DNA from: Naegleria gruberi
Lineage: Eukaryota
Length of the DNA stretch: 64,000 nt
Reading direction: 5' to 3' (one strand)
NCBI GenBank assembly: GCA_000004985.1
Contig: GG738866.1
Numbering within the stretch: the first letter of the stretch is position 1; every line of letters starts with the position of its first letter. The notes beneath the pieces are model-generated. The model did no database searches, was not told the DNA's origin, and worked only from the letters and a program-made list of their open reading frames with translations. The position numbers were made by a program, and so were the translations under genes. Below are positions 2 through 43,058 of the stretch, piece by piece.

Positions 2-1417
2 TCAGCATTTAAGGTTCAAGGATTGACAAGCTTTATTGAAATTGTCTTTGCTGACTTGGTTTTCAAGAGCGAAAATGTTAGTTGTGTCTATTTTGATGAA
101 GTTTCGAATGCTTGGAGTAGGGATGGATTGATTACTACTCTTGTCAAGAAACAAACAGGTGGATTTAATGTCAAATGTGAAACTAATCACTTGACAGCTT
201 TCTCTGTTGTTGTCAATGATGCAATCACACCAGTTCAACCAACTCAATCGCCAGCAAAGAGTGGCACCACTACTACAACTACTGACAATACATTGGCTAT
301 TGTTCTGGGTGTGGTCATTCCTTCTGTTGTGATTATTGCAGCAATTGTCACAGTCATCATTGTTGTAGCAATTGTTTGCATGAGAAAGAAGAAGAAAGGA
401 CAGTCAACAAATCAACCTAAGCTTACCAAACTTGACAGTGTCTATGAACAACCTAACATATCTGCTTATGAACATTCAAAACCTCATGACATTTTGACAG
501 ATACTGAACTTTCTGTCATGTCTGATTTCCCATCAAACAATAGCATGTTAATCAAACCATTAATGAGTGTTTACACAAGCACTGGTTCAACATCAAGCAC
601 TTCTTCTAAATTTGATCCAATGTCCAGATATAAGAATCTTGTTAGAATTGGTCAAGGCGGTTTTGGAAGTGTTTTCAAAGCAGAAGATGCCAAGTGTGGA
701 AATCAACTCAAAGCCCTCAAAGTTATCAAATATTCATCAGTGGAAGAATTGAACAACATTTTGAAGGAAGGAAATCGTTTAATGAACATTTCACATCCAT
801 ACATTCTCCATGTGAATGATGTCTTGATTGACTCTGATCAAATCCTATGTATTGATATGGACTATTATGAAAAGGGAGATTTAAATCAATTTGTAAAGGT
901 TGGTTCTGAATGCCCTGAAAATATTCTCAAACAAATTCTCTATCAAATGTGTAATGCTCTCGATTATGTTCACAACACTTTACAAATTGTTCACAGAGAT
1001 ATCAAACCATCGAATATTTTCATTAAGGAAATGTCTCAAGATAGTATTCATTTGATTTTAGCAGATTTTGGATTGGCTAGACAAACTCAAGGAAGTGTCA
1101 TGTTTTCCTATGCAGGAACTCCATTGTTCATGTCAACTGAGTTAGCTCTCGGTGGTAAATATACTGCCAATACTGATATTTATTCATTGGGTGTGACATT
1201 GTATCAAATTATTACAAAGGATGTAGAAACTTCATTGTCTCACATATCGCTCACTATGGATACAGCCGAATTTGAAAAGACTATTAGAAATAAGATGAAA
1301 CAAGCCAACCCTGCACTTTCGGATGAATTATTGGACATTATTGTGAGCATGTTGAAGAGAGATTATGCCACAAGACCTTATCCAAAGGATATTCTCTCCA
1401 ATTCCTACTTCCAATAA
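2..1417 (+). CDS. Receptor-like Ser/Thr protein kinase, 5' truncated by the window edge. Extracellular GPS (GAIN-type) motif, Thr-rich stalk, one TM helix, cytoplasmic kinase domain.
   Basis: The reading frame is open from position 2, and the track ORF at 23 begins at a TTG that is not a true start. Residues CVYFDEVSNAWSRDGL...NVKCETNHLTAFSVVV match the GPS consensus C-x-[FW]D...W...G...C-x-C-x-HLT-x-F-[AS]-V-[LV]. Next come TTTTTT and the TM segment LAIVLGVVIPSVVIIAAIVTVIIVVAIVC followed by a KKKK stop-transfer. Kinase subdomains are present: IGQGGFGSVFKA, ALKVIK, HRDIKPSN, DFGLAR, GTPLFMSTE. Stop is TAA at 1415..1417. Confidence 0.8.
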   Translation, partial: SAFKVQGLTSFIEIVFADLVFKSENVSCVYFDEVSNAWSRDGLITTLVKKQTGGFNVKCETNHLTAFSVVVNDAITPVQPTQSPAKSGTTTTTTDNTLAIVLGVVIPSVVIIAAIVTVIIVVAIVCMRKKKKGQSTNQPKLTKLDSVYEQPNISAYEHSKPHDILTDTELSVMSDFPSNNSMLIKPLMSVYTSTGSTSSTSSKFDPMSRYKNLVRIGQGGFGSVFKAEDAKCGNQLKALKVIKYSSVEELNNILKEGNRLMNISHPYILHVNDVLIDSDQILCIDMDYYEKGDLNQFVKVGSECPENILKQILYQMCNALDYVHNTLQIVHRDIKPSNIFIKEMSQDSIHLILADFGLARQTQGSVMFSYAGTPLFMSTELALGGKYTANTDIYSLGVTLYQIITKDVETSLSHISLTMDTAEFEKTIRNKMKQANPALSDELLDIIVSMLKRDYATRPYPKDILSNSYFQ

Positions 1418-4808: not shown

Positions 4809-4916
4809 TTTTAATTTGATGGTCAAAATTCAAGCAACATGCTGGTACAATCATCAATACCAATATTGACTTTGATGCTTACAGTTATTCAAAAATTCAC
4901 TTAATTATGGGAGAAA

Positions 4917-5118
4917 GGGTGGCTCCAAAACTGACGGATAGTGCAATGTCTGCTTGAAACCTACCAAAGGGTGCTCTCAACTTGTTTCCAAGGAGGCACA
5001 CCTCTGGACCCGACAAAAAATTGAGTTAATAGTAAACGCGCCCCGTAGGACGCTTTCAGCTATTAAACTGAAAAGAACAGATACTACACTCGATCAAAGC
5101 CAAAAGGCCGAGAAAGAT
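4917..5118 (-). ncRNA. U2: U2 spliceosomal snRNA.
   Basis: The minus-strand read begins AUCUUUCUCGGCCUUUUGGCUUUGAUCGAGUGUAGUAUCUGUUCUUUUCAGUUUAAUAGCUGA, near-identical to the canonical U2 5' end and including the GUAGUA branch-point-pairing box. An Sm site AAUUUUUUG is present, the stem-loop IV loop is AUUGCACUAUCC, and the 3' end is ...GGAGCCACCC (canonical U2 ends CACCC). Confidence 0.9.
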
Positions 5119-5574
5119 GTTTTGTAGAAAAGGCTTACCAGTAGTGTATAAATGCCATTTCAAAGTGGCTTTGTTGGTGGAGAAAATTTGTGGGATTTGA
5201 ATATTTTTAAACAAGTTTGAAAATAAAATTGTGAGGAATGAAAAAGCCATCACATACCTTTCATTGATCCATATGTTCAGTTACAAAGCTTTTAGTTCTT
5301 TATTGGCTTCGTCTTTCATGATCACTGGAGCGGAAAGAAGAAAAGCGTTTCGTTTGAACATGTGCTTCGCTTCACATAGAACAAAGCAAACTTGGTACTA
5401 CCTAGGTATTGTTCTTGTGATGTCATATTGATGACATCGATTGATGGTGCGAAGATCGTTGTCGGCTGTTTTTTTTTTATTATTTAAAATAATTTGTTAA
5501 CGGTAATATTTTTAAAATTACCAAACTTAACACTAGAGGGTATATTAAACCTTTTATTTTACAATTAATGTGCT

Positions 5575-5645
5575 CGTCTCGTGGTGTAATGGTAGCATAG
5601 TGGACTTTGAATCCATTGACGGAGGTTCGATTCCTCCCGAGACGG
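5575..5645 (+). tRNA. tRNA-Gln, anticodon UUG, 71 nt, no intron.
   Basis: Cloverleaf read by hand. Acceptor CGTCTCG pairs with CGAGACG. D arm GTGT/AATGGTA/GCAT. Anticodon stem GTGGA/TCCAT with loop CTTTGAA, anticodon TTG. T arm GGAGG/TTCGATT/CCTCC. Discriminator G. Internal Pol III A box TGGTGTAATGG and a perfect B box GGTTCGATTCC. Close to canonical eukaryotic tRNA-Gln(UUG). Confidence 0.9.
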
Positions 5646-5666
5646 TAAACGTGGCGAGCCATGAAA

Positions 5667-5676
5667 TTTTTATTTT
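5667..5676 (+). terminator. Pol III terminator: T5 then T4 run, 22 nt downstream of tRNA-Gln.
   Basis: TTTTTATTTT lies immediately 3' of the tRNA. An oligo-T tract is the standard RNA polymerase III termination signal. Confidence 0.5.
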
Positions 5677-5925
5677 CAAATTGTTCAAATTGATGCATCA
5701 CTTGCATGTTAATTTTGATGATACTCCAGTTCACTCCATCAATTCCACACAAAATTTCTCCATTAAGCTGAAATACCGTACTCAACGGTCCAAAATGAAC
5801 ACTTTTACAAAAACTGAAACAGCCCATTCAATGATTCACTTTGCACAATTTGCTATCCACGCAAACGCTCCCAACACCAAGATTTCAAAGATTTCGCAGC
5901 AAACCAACAATCCAAATTAAAAAAA

Positions 5926-6831
5926 ATGAAAATCTCAAGCCTTATTGTGTTCTCCGTATGTATCCTCCTCATCTTGGGAGGTGTTGCTTCGATGAATGCT
6001 GCTATTCCAATGCGTGATCAAAAGACTCATAAATCACTCTCTTTTACAATGAAGAAGATTTCTGATTCTACAGAATCACAAAAGCCAATTAAGGCTGGTT
6101 ATTTGTGCCCAACTTGTATTGGTAGGTTATTGTTGACTATTCATTCCTTATTTAATTGAACAATGTTTCTTCACTATTATTTATTTGTTCTTCATATAAT
6201 AGATATTCTCGATTTTGCATTGGCTGATTTGGCTGCTGCTGCTGATGCTGGTGTTATTGGTTCTTGTTACAAGTTGTGTAATGCCATTATTGGATCTGGT
6301 ACTTATGCCTGGGAAGGTTGCAATGTTATCTGTGATGCTATTGGTATCAATGTCTTTATTGACATTATCAAGAAGGCTGATTTGGATCCAATTTATGCCT
6401 GCCAATTGGCTAACATTTGTCCAGTTAAGGATTGTACTGCTAAGAGATGTGCTTCATTCCTCAACTCTGGCTTCATTCCAGAAAAGATCCAACACGGTTT
6501 TCCAACAACATTCTACTCTGGTTTGCAAGTTTATAATGCTTCAGGTCCTGGTGAAGTTGTCTTTACTTTGAATGGTGCCTTCTCCACTGAAAATATGATG
6601 CAACGTTTCTACCAACCTAATGGTTATACTCCTGGTACTTATTCTATCAAATTTACCGTTACTACTAAGGATGATGATGCTAAGGCCCTGGAATGGTTGC
6701 CAGGTCTTTATTATGCTGTTGTTGATGTATGTGAAGGTGTCTGTGGTGATCTAAAACCACACACAAGAACCCTTGCACAAGCTAAGGCTAACTTTACATT
6801 GACTCCTCCTCCATGGCCAGGCAAGAATTAA
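5926..6831 (+). CDS. Secreted cysteine-rich protein with saposin-like Cys spacing, two exons: join(5926..6121, 6203..6831).
   Basis: ATG is at 5926 and is followed by a signal peptide MKISSLIVFSVCILLILGGVASMNA. Exon 1 ends ...CPTCIG at a GTAGGT donor. An 81 bp intron (6122..6202) ends in AG, and exon 2 is in frame with the 6163..6831 ORF. The mature region shows paired CxxC and CxxxC motifs (CPTC, SCYKLC, CNVIC, ACQLANIC) as in saposin-B, amoebapore and naegleriapore-type folds, followed by a roughly 130 aa Gly/Tyr-rich C-terminal domain. Confidence 0.6.
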
Positions 6832-19656: not shown

Positions 19657-22600
19657 TTAAGGATGAAGAGTATTGTCAATTGAAGTCAGTGTATACTCAC
19701 AAACATCTTCTTGGCCTGTTTTTGATCTGTCCTGTTTTGGGGTTTGATTTTGGAATTGATATAAATTTTGTTGTGATCCATTGTTGGAACCACCATACAT
19801 GGAATTAGATCTGGAGCGAGCTCTTTCAACTTCACCCAAATCAACTCTGAGTGGTGGATATTCTCTCTGTTGAATTTCTGGACATTTCACTTCAAATATT
19901 CTTGTTGATTCAGAAAGCCCTTTTAGTGGATAAACTCCCAAATCTCTAGCAGAGAACACTCTCTCAGCTTGAATTCTCTGTCTTTTCTTGGAGAAACTTG
20001 AACTGGACGAGAAGCTGGCACTATTGGTTTCATCAACATTTAAAAAGTTACTATAACCTGCTTCAACATTTGCTTCATCCAAGTATTGGACATCCTTATA
20101 AAGAGATCTGGTCTTGTAGAATAAATCCTCGCTCACACATACTTGACCACCATGGGCCAAGGCTTCAATACGGGCAGACTTGTTTACAACAGTACCAAAA
20201 TAATCATATCTCTTCATTGTCTTGTCAAAAACACAGTCACCCTTACCATAATGCAAACCAATTCTCACTCTCAAACCACTCCAATAGGCTTTTCTTGTCT
20301 TAGAGTCCCACTCTTGTCTACAATCCCATTCATGATATAGATCACTAGGCCATTTAGCTGAAAGCAATTCTAATTGAACAGCCATAGCCCACAACATGGC
20401 ATCATATGGATCTCTGAAAGCAACATAAAAACTGTCACCGTTCGTCTTTACTTCATACCCTCTATAGAGTTGGAGATTTCTTCTCATTATTTGATTGTGA
20501 ATTTCCAAAGATTCCCTCATAGCCTTCTCATTACCTTGCCACAACTTGGTACTATTCTGAACATCAGTGAATGCACAAGTGATAAAACCTGATTTAGGTG
20601 CATACTTTTCGCTTGAATCCTTTCTAAAACAGCATAAAAGCAGTGTCATTATAGAACATGCACAAATAATGCAAACGGCAGAACCAATAGAAATACCAAC
20701 AATTGCACCAGTTGAAAGTGTTCTTACTATTGGTTTCAATCCACATGTGTCTAGATCTAATTTATAGGTGGTATTCAAATTTGAAGAAGCATATTGCAAG
20801 TACAACATTTTAGAACCTTGATTACATCCACAAGTAGTCATATCCAAATCACAATTAGATGAGGAAATAGATCTTGCACTAATTGTTGTTGAAGAAGTGG
20901 TAGGACAGGTGTCCCCATAAGGTCCAAAATAATCTTCACCTAACTCAAAAACTGATCTCAAAAATAACGAAGAAGTAAATGTTGATCTAGTCATTTCAAT
21001 ATTTGCTTGTTGCATATAGCTTAAAATGTTCGATACCATTGTTGCAAGGGCATAGCCTTCATAGGCTTCCATAGTCTTATTCAAATTAGGGAAATATGCT
21101 GGATAATCAATCAGAAATTCTCTGGCCATTATATTTGTTGAGCCCGCTTTAGCAAATGAAATAAGGAAAGAAGTGGAAATAATATTGGAAGGGAATGTGA
21201 ATCCTTTGAATTCCACATCTGACATGACCTCAGATGGAATGAGAATAAGTGAAGATGATCCTGTATATCTGTTCAAAAAGTCCTTCACATCCACAGCACT
21301 GGCCATCACAATAACAACATCTCCCAAACTTTGTGTCCAATCAACAACACTTCTGGATCTAGAAAATTGCTTGTATGAAGGAGTTATATCTTCATTACTT
21401 GTCTTGAAGAAGTAAGTTACGTTAGCCACGGCTGATTTCCAATACTGATCAGTACTGTGAATGATTGTAACATCTGGTTCCGTAATGATGCTACTCGCAT
21501 ATCTTGTTGCTGAAACTACTTCTTCAACAATACTTGGTCTCAAATTCACTACATATCTTGAGTATGGATATCTCAACTCTGGATGTCCTGAAACAGATCC
21601 TATCATTGCTACTTGGTATGAGTTCAACACATCTCTAATAGCAGATACATTACCAGTAATTACAGAGCCCAAAATACCAAATACCTTATTCTTTTCAATA
21701 AGGGTTTTAGCCTTTGAAATAATATCTGTCTCATCAGTATAATACTCTGAATAAATGTGTACTTGTGTATCGATAGTACCTTTCTCATTCATTTTGGAGA
21801 AGAGTGATTGAATACCAGTTACCAGATCATTGTTGACATTCTTATATGAAGAGGGATAAAGTCCTCCAAATATGATTGGACTCTTGATACCAGTAGAAGC
21901 TATAATGCTGTCCTTCTGAGCTCCACATTTTTCCTTGTTGTACACAAAATTATCAACCAACTCAAAGGATGTGCCAGTGTATTGGTAAATAAAATGAGAT
22001 CTCATGCCTTGATTACAGGAACCAGACATAAATTTACCAAATGGAATTTGGTATTTCAAAAATTCCTTACTGGAATATAATGTTTCATAGATGGATTTAC
22101 CATTGATAGTTGAAGTAAGAGGAATATTATCTAACACTTCAATAATAAAACTTCCAACAAGGAAACCTTCGACTGCTCCCAAAGTGGTTGGATTTGTTTC
22201 ATAGTATTTAGCCATTATTGAAGAATAAGAATCTATGAGAGTATGTTTCACGCTGAGATAAGGGAATGATTGTGAAATGTAGAATTTAACACTAGACATA
22301 GAAGGATTAGAAAGAAGATTGGATAGTTCTGCCTCCCATGAAATCTGCCTAAAGAAGAGACAAAAGACATGAATCTCATTTCTCAGACCAACAGATTTGA
22401 TACCTTCCAATACTGATTGTAAATATTTGAAACTAGTAACATCTTCAGGAATGGAAATGATAACTACTTGAGGATTTGCATCTTGGGAAAGTGAGTTGGT
22501 AATCAAAGATGAATTAACAGTTTGATCCATAGAAAATAGATAGCTACTGTCAATAGCTAGTCCATATGCTGAAATGATGGAAGAGAATTCTGAAAAGATG

Positions 22601-24647
22601 TTCTGACCATCCTTGCAGTTAGATCCCACAAACGAAAATCTGGACAATCCCAAAGTATTCATTCCAAAACTCATAATTGCTAGTATTCTTTCTCTAACAG
22701 TTAGTGTAACGAGAGCAACATTATTATAGAAGGTTGATCTCAATGCTGGTGAATCGTAGCCAGTTAGAGGTGAAATCATGACAATACTAGGGAAATTCGA
22801 GGAAAATTCCCCAATAAAATCCTTCATTACAGACTCGGCAGCTTTGCTTCCTACTAAGCCGACAATATCATGATCTACCACAAAGTTCCTTGTTGCTGAA
22901 ATCAAAGTTGAGGAGTTGTAGCTTTCCGAGACTGACAATACTTCAATTCTTCTTCCTCTGACTCCTTTCTGTAAATCATTTCTGTCATTAAAAGCAGCCA
23001 ACAATCCCATTAAAAAGTCATTGTCGTAAACACTTCCATCAGATGTATGCCCAAAAATGATTGGAAGCGAAATCTTTGTTGGATCAAAAAAGCAAGTAAA
23101 AGTGGAGGATCCAGGTAAATCCCAAGTCATTGGCTCACCAATTTCCGAGAATGAATTGTCTGTGTTTTGAATGGTTTTCCACACAGCCCTCATACCTTGG
23201 TTACATGAGCAAGAGGACATGTATGCATCATCTAATGTTATTAGACTTCTCTTATTGAGCTTGATACTTGGTGCAAGAGAAGCTGTCAAACTGTGTAGCA
23301 CAAGAGGATTAGAAATTTGCTCCTCGAAAAAGAAATATCGTCTTCTGCTCTGAACAGTTGTGCATTTAGTATAAGGACCTACTACTTGATTGTCCATAAT
23401 GTAGGTAGAGGATGAATAAATTAAGTTGATAAAATTGTCTCTGGTCAAGTCGCCTGAAACTCTCTGGGTGAGTACACTGATTGCAAGTTTACCAGCCATG
23501 TATCCTTCCAATTCTACAATGGATGGTACGTAGGATGGATTCAGAGCTTTCATGGCTCTTTGATAAGACAACACAATTGGATATTTGGTATTTGTTGGAG
23601 CTGGATATACTTGGGTAATTACAATGCTTGATCGATAGGGTAATGGATTTGATCCAATGAATGATCCTGTCATGAAAATGATATTCGAATCAAAGTCAGT
23701 CCTATTCTTTACAGCCTCAATAAAAGCAACTGTTGGCTTGTAGGTTGACATGCAAATGATTGCTTGTGGTTTTCCCTTGACAATATCCTCTACTGCCTGG
23801 GCAACATTAATGGTATTTCTCTCGTATTTACCCTATTAAGGTGAGATAGTAGCAACATTACTCAGTTGTGTTGTAATTTTGAGAATTATAATAATAACAT
23901 ACCATTGAGGTCAAATTCATTCCCAGTGGTTTAAGCGCAAGGGTTGATCCATCCACTCCTGACAGACCAAATGCATCGTTTTGATAAAAGATGGAGATTC
24001 TTCTCACCATTTTGACATTTACCAAATACTCAACCATTGCGGCGCACTCGTCCTGATAACTGGCTCTCACATTAATAATATTTGGTACGAAAGGATGTCT
24101 CATAAAAAGACCACCTGTTAAGGCTCCAACAAATGGCATTTTAGATGCAGTAATAAGGTCAAGAATTGCCTGACTGGTACCAGTTCCCATAAACCCAATA
24201 AATCCAAATATTGTATGGTTGCTAAGAAGAGTGAGTGTATTGTTGACACATCGAGCTGGCTCATAGCCATCATCAACAGAGTACAGGCGAAGTTTCTTAC
24301 CTCCCCACACACCTCCTAATTCGTTGATTTCCTTAAATGCAGCTTGAATGCCAACCATGAGCGGATAGCCCAGTCTGTTTTTCAACAGTGATGAATCATA
24401 CATAATGTTAAATTCATTGCAAATAACAAAAATACAGTATTATTCACACCTCATCTTTAACATTTAAAACTTACTCTCTGGTCTGTCCAGTAAGGGCAGT
24501 TGATTGCCCGAACCAAATATCGGTCTCATCATTCCATTTTTTGTCGTACTCTGTCTGGTCAAAGGTAAAAGATGTGTTAACAGTATTTCTATTCATCAAT
24601 ACAATAAGCAGCACGATTAATATTAATATTTTCAAAATATTCTTCAT
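19657..24647 (-). CDS. Receptor-type adenylate cyclase: signal peptide, tandem periplasmic-binding-protein type-1 (ANF-receptor-like) ectodomains, one TM helix, class III cyclase catalytic domain, no kinase-homology domain. Three exons: join(24475..24647, 23903..24374, 19657..23832), about 1606 aa.
   Basis: Exon 1 is MKNILKILILIVLLIVLMNRNTVNT (signal peptide) and ends ...GQTR at a GTAAGT donor. A 100 bp intron ends in AG. Exon 2 is LGYPLMVGIQAAFKEINELGG...VRASYQDECAAMVEY (PBP1 fold) and ends ...NLTSM at GTATGT. A 70 bp intron follows. Exon 3 is a 4176 nt single exon. TM segment AIVGISIGSAVCIICACSIMTLLLCCF. Cyclase motifs: FTDVQNSTKLW, KTNGDSFYVAF, RVRIGLHYG, FGTVVNKSARIEALAHGGQVCVS. The substrate-specifying positions are Lys (KTNGDSF) and Asp (YDYFG), which predict ATP rather than GTP. 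Confidence 0.85.
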
Positions 24648-42032: not shown

Positions 42033-42047
42033 TAATAATAGGAGAAA

Positions 42048-42249
42048 GGGTGGCTCCAAAACTGACGGATAGTGCAATGTCTGCTTGAAACCTACCAAAG
42101 GGTGCTCTCAACTTGTTTCCAAGGAGGCACACCTCTGGACCCGACAAAAAATTGAGTTAATAGTAAACGCGCCCCGTAGGACGCTTTCAGCTATTAAACT
42201 GAAAAGAACAGATACTACACTCGATCAAAGCCAAAAGGCCGAGAAAGAT
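42048..42249 (-). ncRNA. U2: U2 spliceosomal snRNA, second copy.
   Basis: Identical to 4917..5118 at offset 37131. Confidence 0.85.
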
Positions 42250-42705
42250 GTTTTGTAGAAAAGGCTTACCAGTAGTGTATAAATGCCATTTCAAAGTGGC
42301 TTTGTTGGTGGAGAAAATTTGTGGGATTTGAATATTTTTAAACAAGTTTGAAAATAAAATTGTGAGGAATGAAAAAGCCATCACATACCTTTCATTGATC
42401 CATATGTTCAGTTACAAAGCTTTTAGTTCTTTATTGGCTTCGTCTTTCATGATCACTGGAGCGGAAAGAAGAAAAGCGTTTCGTTTGAACATGTGCTTCG
42501 CTTCACATAGAACAAAGCAAACTTGGTACTACCTAGGTATTGTTCTTGTGATGTCATATTGATGACATCGATTGATGGTGCGAAGATCGTTGTCGGCTGT
42601 TTTTTTTTTATTATTTAAAATAATTTGTTAACGGTAATATTTTTAAAATTACCAAACTTAACACTAGAGGGTATATTAAACCTTTTATTTTACAATTAAT
42701 GTGCT

Positions 42706-42776
42706 CGTCTCGTGGTGTAATGGTAGCATAGTGGACTTTGAATCCATTGACGGAGGTTCGATTCCTCCCGAGACGG
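42706..42776 (+). tRNA. tRNA-Gln(UUG), second copy.
   Basis: Identical to 5575..5645 at offset 37131. Confidence 0.85.
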
Positions 42777-43058
42777 TAAACGTGGCGAGCCATGAAATTT
42801 TTATTTTCAAATTGTTCAAATTGATGCATCACTTGTATGTTAATTTTGATGATACTCCAGTTCACTCCATCAATTCCACACAAAATTTCTCCATTAAGCT
42901 GAAATACCGTACTCAACGGTCCAAAATGAACACTTTTACAAAAACTGAAACAGCCCATTCAATGATTCACTTTGCACAATTTGCTATCCACGCAAACGCT
43001 CCCAACACCAAGATTTCAAAGATTTCGCAGCAAACCAAAATCCAAATAAAAAAAATAA

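Follow-up and report, generated by a model that had tools for sequence, protein, structure and literature searches.

At the 5' edge of a 64,000-nucleotide stretch of Naegleria gruberi contig GG738866.1 (this whole stretch is called the window throughout) lies the 3' part of a gene that very probably encodes a type-I single-pass receptor Ser/Thr kinase. The window holds the C-terminal 471 residues of this protein, in which the end of a GAIN domain, with its GPS motif and an H63-L64|T65 triad (the bar marks the predicted scissile bond), adjoins the membrane. A GPS motif followed by a single transmembrane (TM) helix and a cytoplasmic Ser/Thr kinase had been proposed from the letters of the sequence alone (hereafter the original prediction), and this order was borne out by Pfam, which recognizes both GPS and Pkinase, and by hydropathy. 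The quoted GPS stretch is present (CVYFDEVSNAWSRDGL...NVKCETNHLTAFSVVV, residues 28-71) and the GAIN end of the fragment reads CVYFDEVSNAWSRDGL...VKCETNHL|TAFSVVV. Frame 2 is uninterrupted from base 2, which places the N-terminal ectodomain upstream of the window. The part of the ectodomain inside the window had been estimated at about 55 residues; it amounts instead to about 97, of which about 72 belong to GAIN subdomain B and 25 to a stalk (Table 1).

Homology and fold of the GAIN domain

The GPS assignment was confirmed with hidden Markov models: PF01825 exceeds its curated Pfam cut-off of 22.5 bits both when the ectodomain is searched alone (28.7 bits, E 1.9e-6) and when the whole fragment is searched (24.7 bits, E 3.5e-5), and the match spans model positions 2-44/45. 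We also searched the PDB with a profile of the family alignment, which contains 37 sequences, the window protein and 36 others. This profile matches only GAIN domains of adhesion G-protein-coupled receptors (GPCRs), with E-values from 4.7e-17 to 1e-4. The best match, to ADGRG6 (4.7e-17), spans both GAIN subdomains; ADGRG3 (2.3e-13), ADGRL3 (1.6e-11) and ADGRG1 (1.8e-11) follow, and weaker matches were obtained with ADGRF1, ADGRE5, ADGRD1, BAI2 and BAI3.

Predicted structures of two homologues agree with this result. The closest full-length homologue is the N. fowleri protein P0130, where ectodomain, GAIN domain, TM helix and kinase are continuous; its GAIN region is modelled with a GAIN fold, and the triad falls in the turn that joins the final two beta-strands. 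The last GAIN strand is predicted both in this model and in that of a metagenomic homologue, P0002, whose GAIN domain was modelled as subdomain B only, right after an EGF repeat. As a separate observation, this B-only GAIN domain carries an intact HLT, whereas the whole GAIN domain has been described as required for cleavage or as tuning it, functional uncleaved GAIN domains such as that of BAI3 being also known (Araç et al. 2012, PMC3321182).

A short GPS motif arising by chance, with no GAIN domain around it, might be suspected from the full-protein Pfam E-value, which is merely 3.5e-5, and from the relatives that score below the PF01825 threshold. The PDB profile matches and the GAIN-fold models of the homologues rule this explanation out for practical purposes, leaving it a negligible probability.

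Two known classes of GPS-bearing membrane proteins were also considered and rejected. The fragment is not an adhesion GPCR, as it has one TM helix, gives no 7tm_2 match and continues into a kinase; nor does it belong to the PKD1-like/REJ family, given its one TM helix and the lack of any PLAT or PKD_channel match in the window protein. Pfam likewise reports no REJ match in P0130.

Conservation of the predicted cleavage triad and alteration of the GPS motif

An H-L|T/S/C triad directly before the last beta-strand is found in the window protein as H63-L64-T65, followed by AFSVVV. Across the family alignment the histidine is invariant (H63, 37/37), the leucine nearly so (L64, 36/37), and the +1 residue is always a hydroxyl amino acid, T in 32/37 and S in 5/37; in the last strand F67 is kept in 37/37 and V69 in 30/37. 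The triad is thus near-invariant although the mean column identity of the alignment is only 16%, which argues for selection on the catalytic triad and makes autoproteolysis at H63-L64|T65 probable. In a wider set, 143 representatives related through the GPS region, about 130 keep H-[LMIV]-[TSC], which is the very pattern searched for.

The GPS had been called textbook, and here the original prediction stands only in part: the HL|T-bearing motif is present, but it has two cysteines instead of four and a phenylalanine in place of the first tryptophan. Compared with the canonical GPS, with four Cys (two disulfides) and two Trp, the window protein keeps C1 (C28, 37/37), C3 (C59, 37/37) and the second Trp (W38, 37/37), while C2 is L43, C4 is T61 and the first Trp is F31. 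In CL1 the scissile turn is held by two disulfides, C801-C832 and C820-C834 (PMC3321182); the changes of C2 to Leu and of C4 to Thr mean that both partners of one disulfide have been replaced together in the window protein. This two-Cys pattern is common to most of the relatives.

These alterations bear on a different reading, according to which GAIN and GPS form a non-cleaving structural stalk that spaces and orients an adhesive ectodomain, the protein signalling as an ordinary receptor kinase clustered by its ligand. The loss of one canonical disulfide and of the first Trp would fit such a stalk, as would the existence of functional GAIN domains that stay uncleaved, like BAI3, and the tuning of cleavage by the whole domain (PMC3321182). 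However, a triad kept in 37/37, 36/37 and 37/37 sequences at 16% mean identity is not easily accounted for by the needs of the fold alone, and the searched pattern persists in most of the 143 relatives. We therefore regard a purely structural role as possible, if rather unlikely, and cleavage at the triad as the probable behavior of this domain.

Membrane anchor, linker and kinase domain

The coordinates of the fragment and of its parts are reported in Table 1. The only hydrophobic segment (residues 98-127) reaches a Kyte-Doolittle value of 3.45. The stalk preceding it is plausibly O-glycosylated, to judge from its composition, and linkers of similar length are found in P0130 and P0002. No Pfam domain was found in the juxtamembrane linker (residues 128-209). 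Pfam matches to TMEM154, DAG1, RIFIN, SKG6 and similar families over residues 62-160 were rejected, as they reflect the composition of the stalk and TM helix; among these weak matches only TMEM154 passes its cut-off, and marginally (31.0 vs 30.3 bits).

Table 1. Features of the receptor-kinase fragment in the window (aa, residues of the 471-residue fragment)
Feature	Position	Strand	Basis
3' part of the receptor-kinase gene, 471 codons + TAA (1415-1417)	2..1417	+	Frame 2 open at the 5' edge of the window
End of GAIN subdomain B with its C-terminal strands (aa 1-72); a conserved strand, L..xIxIxF, at aa 8-16	2..217	+	In register with 36 family members and adhesion-GPCR GAIN domains
GPS motif (aa 27-69), one-disulfide variant	80..208	+	Pfam PF01825, ectodomain score
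Predicted autoproteolysis triad H63-L64|T65, scissile bond between bases 193/194	188..196	+	Family alignment, homologue model
Last GAIN beta-strand T65-AFSVVV, at the 'Stachel' (tethered-agonist strand) position of adhesion GPCRs	194..217	+	Family columns; strand in both homologue models
Thr/Pro/Ser-rich extracellular stalk, 25 residues (aa 73-97, NDAITPVQPTQSPAKSGTTTTTTDNT)	218..292	+	Sequence
Single TM helix (aa 98-127), then RKKKK (positive-inside)	293..382	+	Hydropathy scan
Cytoplasmic juxtamembrane linker, 82 residues (aa 128-209), Ser/Thr-rich	383..628	+	Sequence
RD-type protein kinase domain (aa 210-470)	629..1411	+	Pkinase PF00069, 167.7 bits

The kinase had been described as complete, with HRDIKPSN, DFGLAR and GTPLFMSTE, and it is: these motifs are read in frame, and the Pkinase match covers the full model, positions 1-263. 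HRDIKPSN occupies residues 331-338 (bases 992-1015) and DFGLAR residues 355-360 (DFG at bases 1064-1072). With the glycine-rich loop GQGGFGSV (GxGxxG), the VAIK lysine in ALKVIK and the subdomain XI arginine in TRP, the motif set of an active eukaryotic protein kinase is present from the Gly-rich loop to subdomain XI. With all catalytic motifs in place, an active RD-type kinase is to be expected, and a pseudokinase was rejected on the same ground.

TK, TKL and IRAK kinases are the receptor kinases of animals and plants. The closest solved kinases to the window domain are ULK3 (E 4e-29), NEK1/2, STK33 and the STE20-type MST3/4, with EGFR at 7.5e-21, which suggests a position outside TK, TKL and IRAK; this placement comes from matches to solved structures. 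Related kinase domains also stand behind NHL+EGF ectodomains in P0005 and P0006, two proteins where GPS was undetected.

A family of GAIN-kinase receptors

A profile of two ectodomain regions, searched against 1.84 billion representative proteins with a cut-off of E <= 1e-3, retrieved 204 relatives. GPS, one TM helix and a kinase occur together in six of the listed relatives. The first is the N. fowleri protein already mentioned (P0130/P0275, CAG4715597/FDP41_013523), 46% identical to residues 8-470 of the window protein and 58% in the kinase. Two more are from N. gruberi itself, NAEGRDRAFT_70317 (P0169, 2271 aa) and NAEGRDRAFT_59090 (P0245, 1389 aa), so that the paralogues of the same architecture whose search had been suggested do exist. 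The others are FDP41_011216 of N. fowleri (P0223, 2316 aa, named 'GPS domain-containing protein' in UniProt), C9374_002447 of N. lovaniensis (P0161) and PRP87245 of the amoebozoan Planoprotostelium fungivorum (P0246). Concerning the kinase, identity to the window protein is 58% for NAEGRDRAFT_70317, over a partial alignment of 189 residues, and 36-38% for NAEGRDRAFT_59090, FDP41_011216 and C9374_002447. The P. fungivorum protein has a GAIN-like region; its kinase is only distantly similar to that of the window, and the Pfam Tyr/Ser-Thr model outscores Pkinase on it, which suggests that GAIN-kinase fusions arose more than once.

The metagenomic P0002 shares this layout, with 39% identity across 99% of the fragment: an EGF repeat is followed by about 150 residues ending in CKYLD...W...CLTTHLTSFAV, a TM helix and the same kinase. 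The called gene begins at an internal Met (L001 2-2134, ena:ERZ27315067:k141_505436), and its frame is open to the 5' end of the contig through at least four further EGF-like repeats. In the large Naegleria members Pfam finds a teneurin-type NHL propeller and EGF arrays, then several hundred unassigned residues and then the GPS; the upstream part of the window gene's own ectodomain may be of a similar kind.

When the 143 representative relatives were sorted by a crude hydropathy scan, six had one TM helix and a kinase, 54 had one TM helix with no kinase match (mostly with short tails), about 43 had several TM helices, including REJ+GPS proteins (P0143, P0184), and 31 were truncated or ended soon after the GPS. 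From these counts the wiring of a GPS to a kinase is uncommon, as had been supposed; it is real and recurs within Naegleria, yet only a small minority of GPS proteins show it. Most members are missed by PF01825, which leaves the family under-annotated, and automatic database names ('GPS domain-containing protein', 'GAIN-B domain-containing protein') are found on few of them.

Naegleria also has many proteins in which NHL/EGF modules and GAIN-B precede one TM helix and a short tail (P0127, P0129, P0131, P0133, P0140 and P0282, of N. gruberi and N. lovaniensis), the ending HLTSFAVID.N[FY]KK being kept right before the TM helix. They look like a large family of adhesion proteins sharing the ectodomain plan of the receptor kinases.

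The locus and the points against the assignment

No protein identical or near-identical to the 471-residue fragment was found in a search of a database of 5.8 billion proteins, where the top match was an N. gruberi kinase-only model, 55% identical; nor is the window protein one of 285 others that were retrieved. Since neither set holds an identical protein, the locus at 2-1417 appears to lack a gene model. Its overall identity to the Naegleria members in the database is at most 46%, and it is a separate locus from theirs. A scan of metagenomes for an upstream extension of the gene yielded only a kinase 25% identical.

The locus could also be a pseudogene, or a mere fragment of a gene, or could result from an error of assembly: annotated N. 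gruberi proteins give no match, the scaffold is gapped and a duplicated piece of 1 kb lies near the end of the window. Against this, the open reading frame (ORF) of 471 codons is uninterrupted, the key residues of kinase and GPS are intact, and the same domain order recurs in three Naegleria species and one metagenomic contig. We consider it very improbable that the locus is not a genuine gene.

Other observations weigh against reading the fragment as the end of a GAIN-bearing, self-cleaving receptor kinase. The GPS lacks one disulfide of the pair holding the scissile turn in CL1, the first conserved Trp is Phe, and GAIN domains with intact motifs may stay uncleaved, BAI3 being an example (PMC3321182). 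PF01825 is below threshold in most relatives, and in the P0130 model the helical subdomain reaches only moderate confidence (predicted local distance difference test, pLDDT, 55-70). Only the C-terminal 471 residues are readable, so that any subdomain A or adhesion modules of this copy would lie outside the window. For this locus neither a gene model nor expression evidence was found, and literature searches found no experiments on any member of the family. Taken with the profile matches, the homologue models and the conserved triad, these points leave the receptor-kinase reading very probable, as stated at the outset.

A possible mode of signalling

A sequence of events can be tentatively proposed. 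In the secretory pathway the GAIN domain would cut itself at HL|T, and the adhesive N-terminal fragment would remain bound non-covalently to the C-terminal fragment through the last beta-strand, TAFSVVV. Binding of the ectodomain to a surface, to prey or to another cell would then cluster the receptors or pull the N-terminal fragment off, and the altered oligomeric state of the TM-kinase fragment would lead to trans-autophosphorylation of the RD-type activation loop. The whole chain, from self-cleavage through engagement to kinase activation, has in our judgement somewhat less than an even chance of being right.

The original prediction had mentioned a tethered-agonist or mechanosensing role for this GPS, and for the window protein both must be considered speculation. 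As there is no seven-transmembrane (7TM) pocket to receive a freed strand, the GAIN domain would act as a force-sensitive latch rather than as the donor of a tethered agonist, and activation by a tethered agonist, as understood for adhesion GPCRs, is unlikely. The full proposal, that in Naegleria the GAIN domain serves a single-pass kinase as a latch that cleaves itself and responds to force, signalling with neither 7TM nor tethered-agonist pocket, is one that we put forward as bold and, at present, unlikely. If it were true, GAIN autoproteolysis would be a mechanosensory module both ancient and portable, and holozoans, by pairing it with 7TM, would have reached only one of several solutions.

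A cascade resembling that of Notch may also be imagined, where cleavage at the GPS and shedding of the N-terminal fragment would be followed by juxtamembrane and intramembrane cuts freeing a soluble kinase. N. gruberi kinase-only models P0001 and P0004 begin at the juxtamembrane position, which would fit such a cascade; however, no protease site or motif was identified and these models may be truncated predictions, and we hold the cascade to be improbable. The two models (290 and 283 aa, respectively) share 51-56% identity with the kinase of the window protein; they may represent truncated models of further receptor kinases, not true cytosolic kinases.

Comparison with known systems

As in adhesion GPCRs (ADGRL, BAI/ADGRB, ADGRG6, CELSR; PMC3321182), a homologous GAIN/GPS stands just outside the membrane, HL|T lies in the turn before the last strand, that strand follows the pattern TxF[AS]V, and adhesion-type modules, EGF among others, are found upstream, the latter in family members. 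Unlike adhesion GPCRs, the window protein has one TM helix and a Ser/Thr kinase, with no 7TM and no tethered-agonist pocket, and unlike the canonical GPS of those receptors it has one of the two disulfides and Phe for the first Trp.

With the PKD1/REJ family and with single-TM GAIN proteins it shares a GPS/GAIN placed ahead of a membrane anchor that is not a GPCR; single-TM isoforms of Drosophila Cirl exist (bioRxiv 10.1101/2023.01.11.521585). It differs from them because of its kinase, and REJ, PLAT and channel domains are all lacking in the part inside the window. The large family members resemble teneurins in their TEN_NHL propeller and EGF_TEN arrays (Pfam), but teneurins are type-II proteins with neither GAIN nor kinase, whereas the family members carry both.

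A receptor module of GPCR signalling wired directly to a kinase is also known from GPCR-kinase fusions, such as choanoflagellate GPCR-TKL/K (PMC12716839) and oomycete and amoebozoan GPCR-PIPK (PMC5784254). In those proteins it is the 7TM that is joined to the kinase, while here it is the GAIN domain, without 7TM. The linkage of GAIN and 7TM was dated to stem holozoans in a 2025 analysis (PMC12716839).

Full-text literature searches on GPS/GAIN in Naegleria, on GAIN-kinase fusions and on Naegleria receptor kinases found no relevant paper, nor does a 2023 survey of transmembrane kinases in protists (PMC10463195) refer to Naegleria or to GPS. We would thus regard the predicted protein as an undescribed pairing of a domain and a receptor logic that are each already known, its GPS being of the one-disulfide kind.

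Work on the GAIN domain has dealt almost exclusively with its role as an activation switch in adhesion GPCRs and polycystins. A conserved family where one TM helix and a Ser/Thr kinase come after it provides a simple, natural setting for asking what cleavage of GAIN and loss of the N-terminal fragment do when no 7TM partner is there. The family extends the range of GAIN to Heterolobosea (Discoba, far from animals), which bears on the age of the domain. It also documents a type of receptor kinase in Naegleria, including the pathogen N. fowleri, with a kinase that, from the solved-structure matches, appears to fall outside TK/TKL.

Genomic neighbourhood

N. gruberi NEG-M proteins encoded on a scaffold of 469,335 bp match four complete ORFs of the window exactly: EFC44734 (NAEGRDRAFT_48808), EFC44820 (Sec24, NAEGRDRAFT_79609), EFC44823 (actin-like) and EFC44824. 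The genes around the receptor kinase (PUB, TTL, Sec24, Myb, a receptor-type cyclase, ICln, actin, UBX) are those of an ordinary amoeboflagellate chromosome. Real sequence stops at base 43058, and the remainder of the window consists of N.

A unit of 1026 bp occurs twice, at 4902-5927 and at 42033-43058, with 99.5% identity between the copies. On the minus strand each has a U2 small nuclear RNA, recognized by Rfam RF00004 with 121 bits, at 4915-5120 in the first copy and at 42046-42251 in the second; a tRNA-Gln(TTG) lies at 5574-5646 and 42705-42777, respectively. Where the real sequence ends, the second copy forms a small contig of its own between N gaps, and the duplication may represent a dispersed cassette of U2 and tRNA-Gln or else an artefact of scaffolding.

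Near the receptor-kinase gene, at 19657-24403 on the minus strand, lies a receptor-type adenylate/guanylate cyclase with ectodomain modules resembling periplasmic binding proteins and the ANF receptor. It extends over two ORFs (19657-23751 and 23858-24403), probably split by an intron, and is another receptor that combines sensor and enzyme in a single gene.

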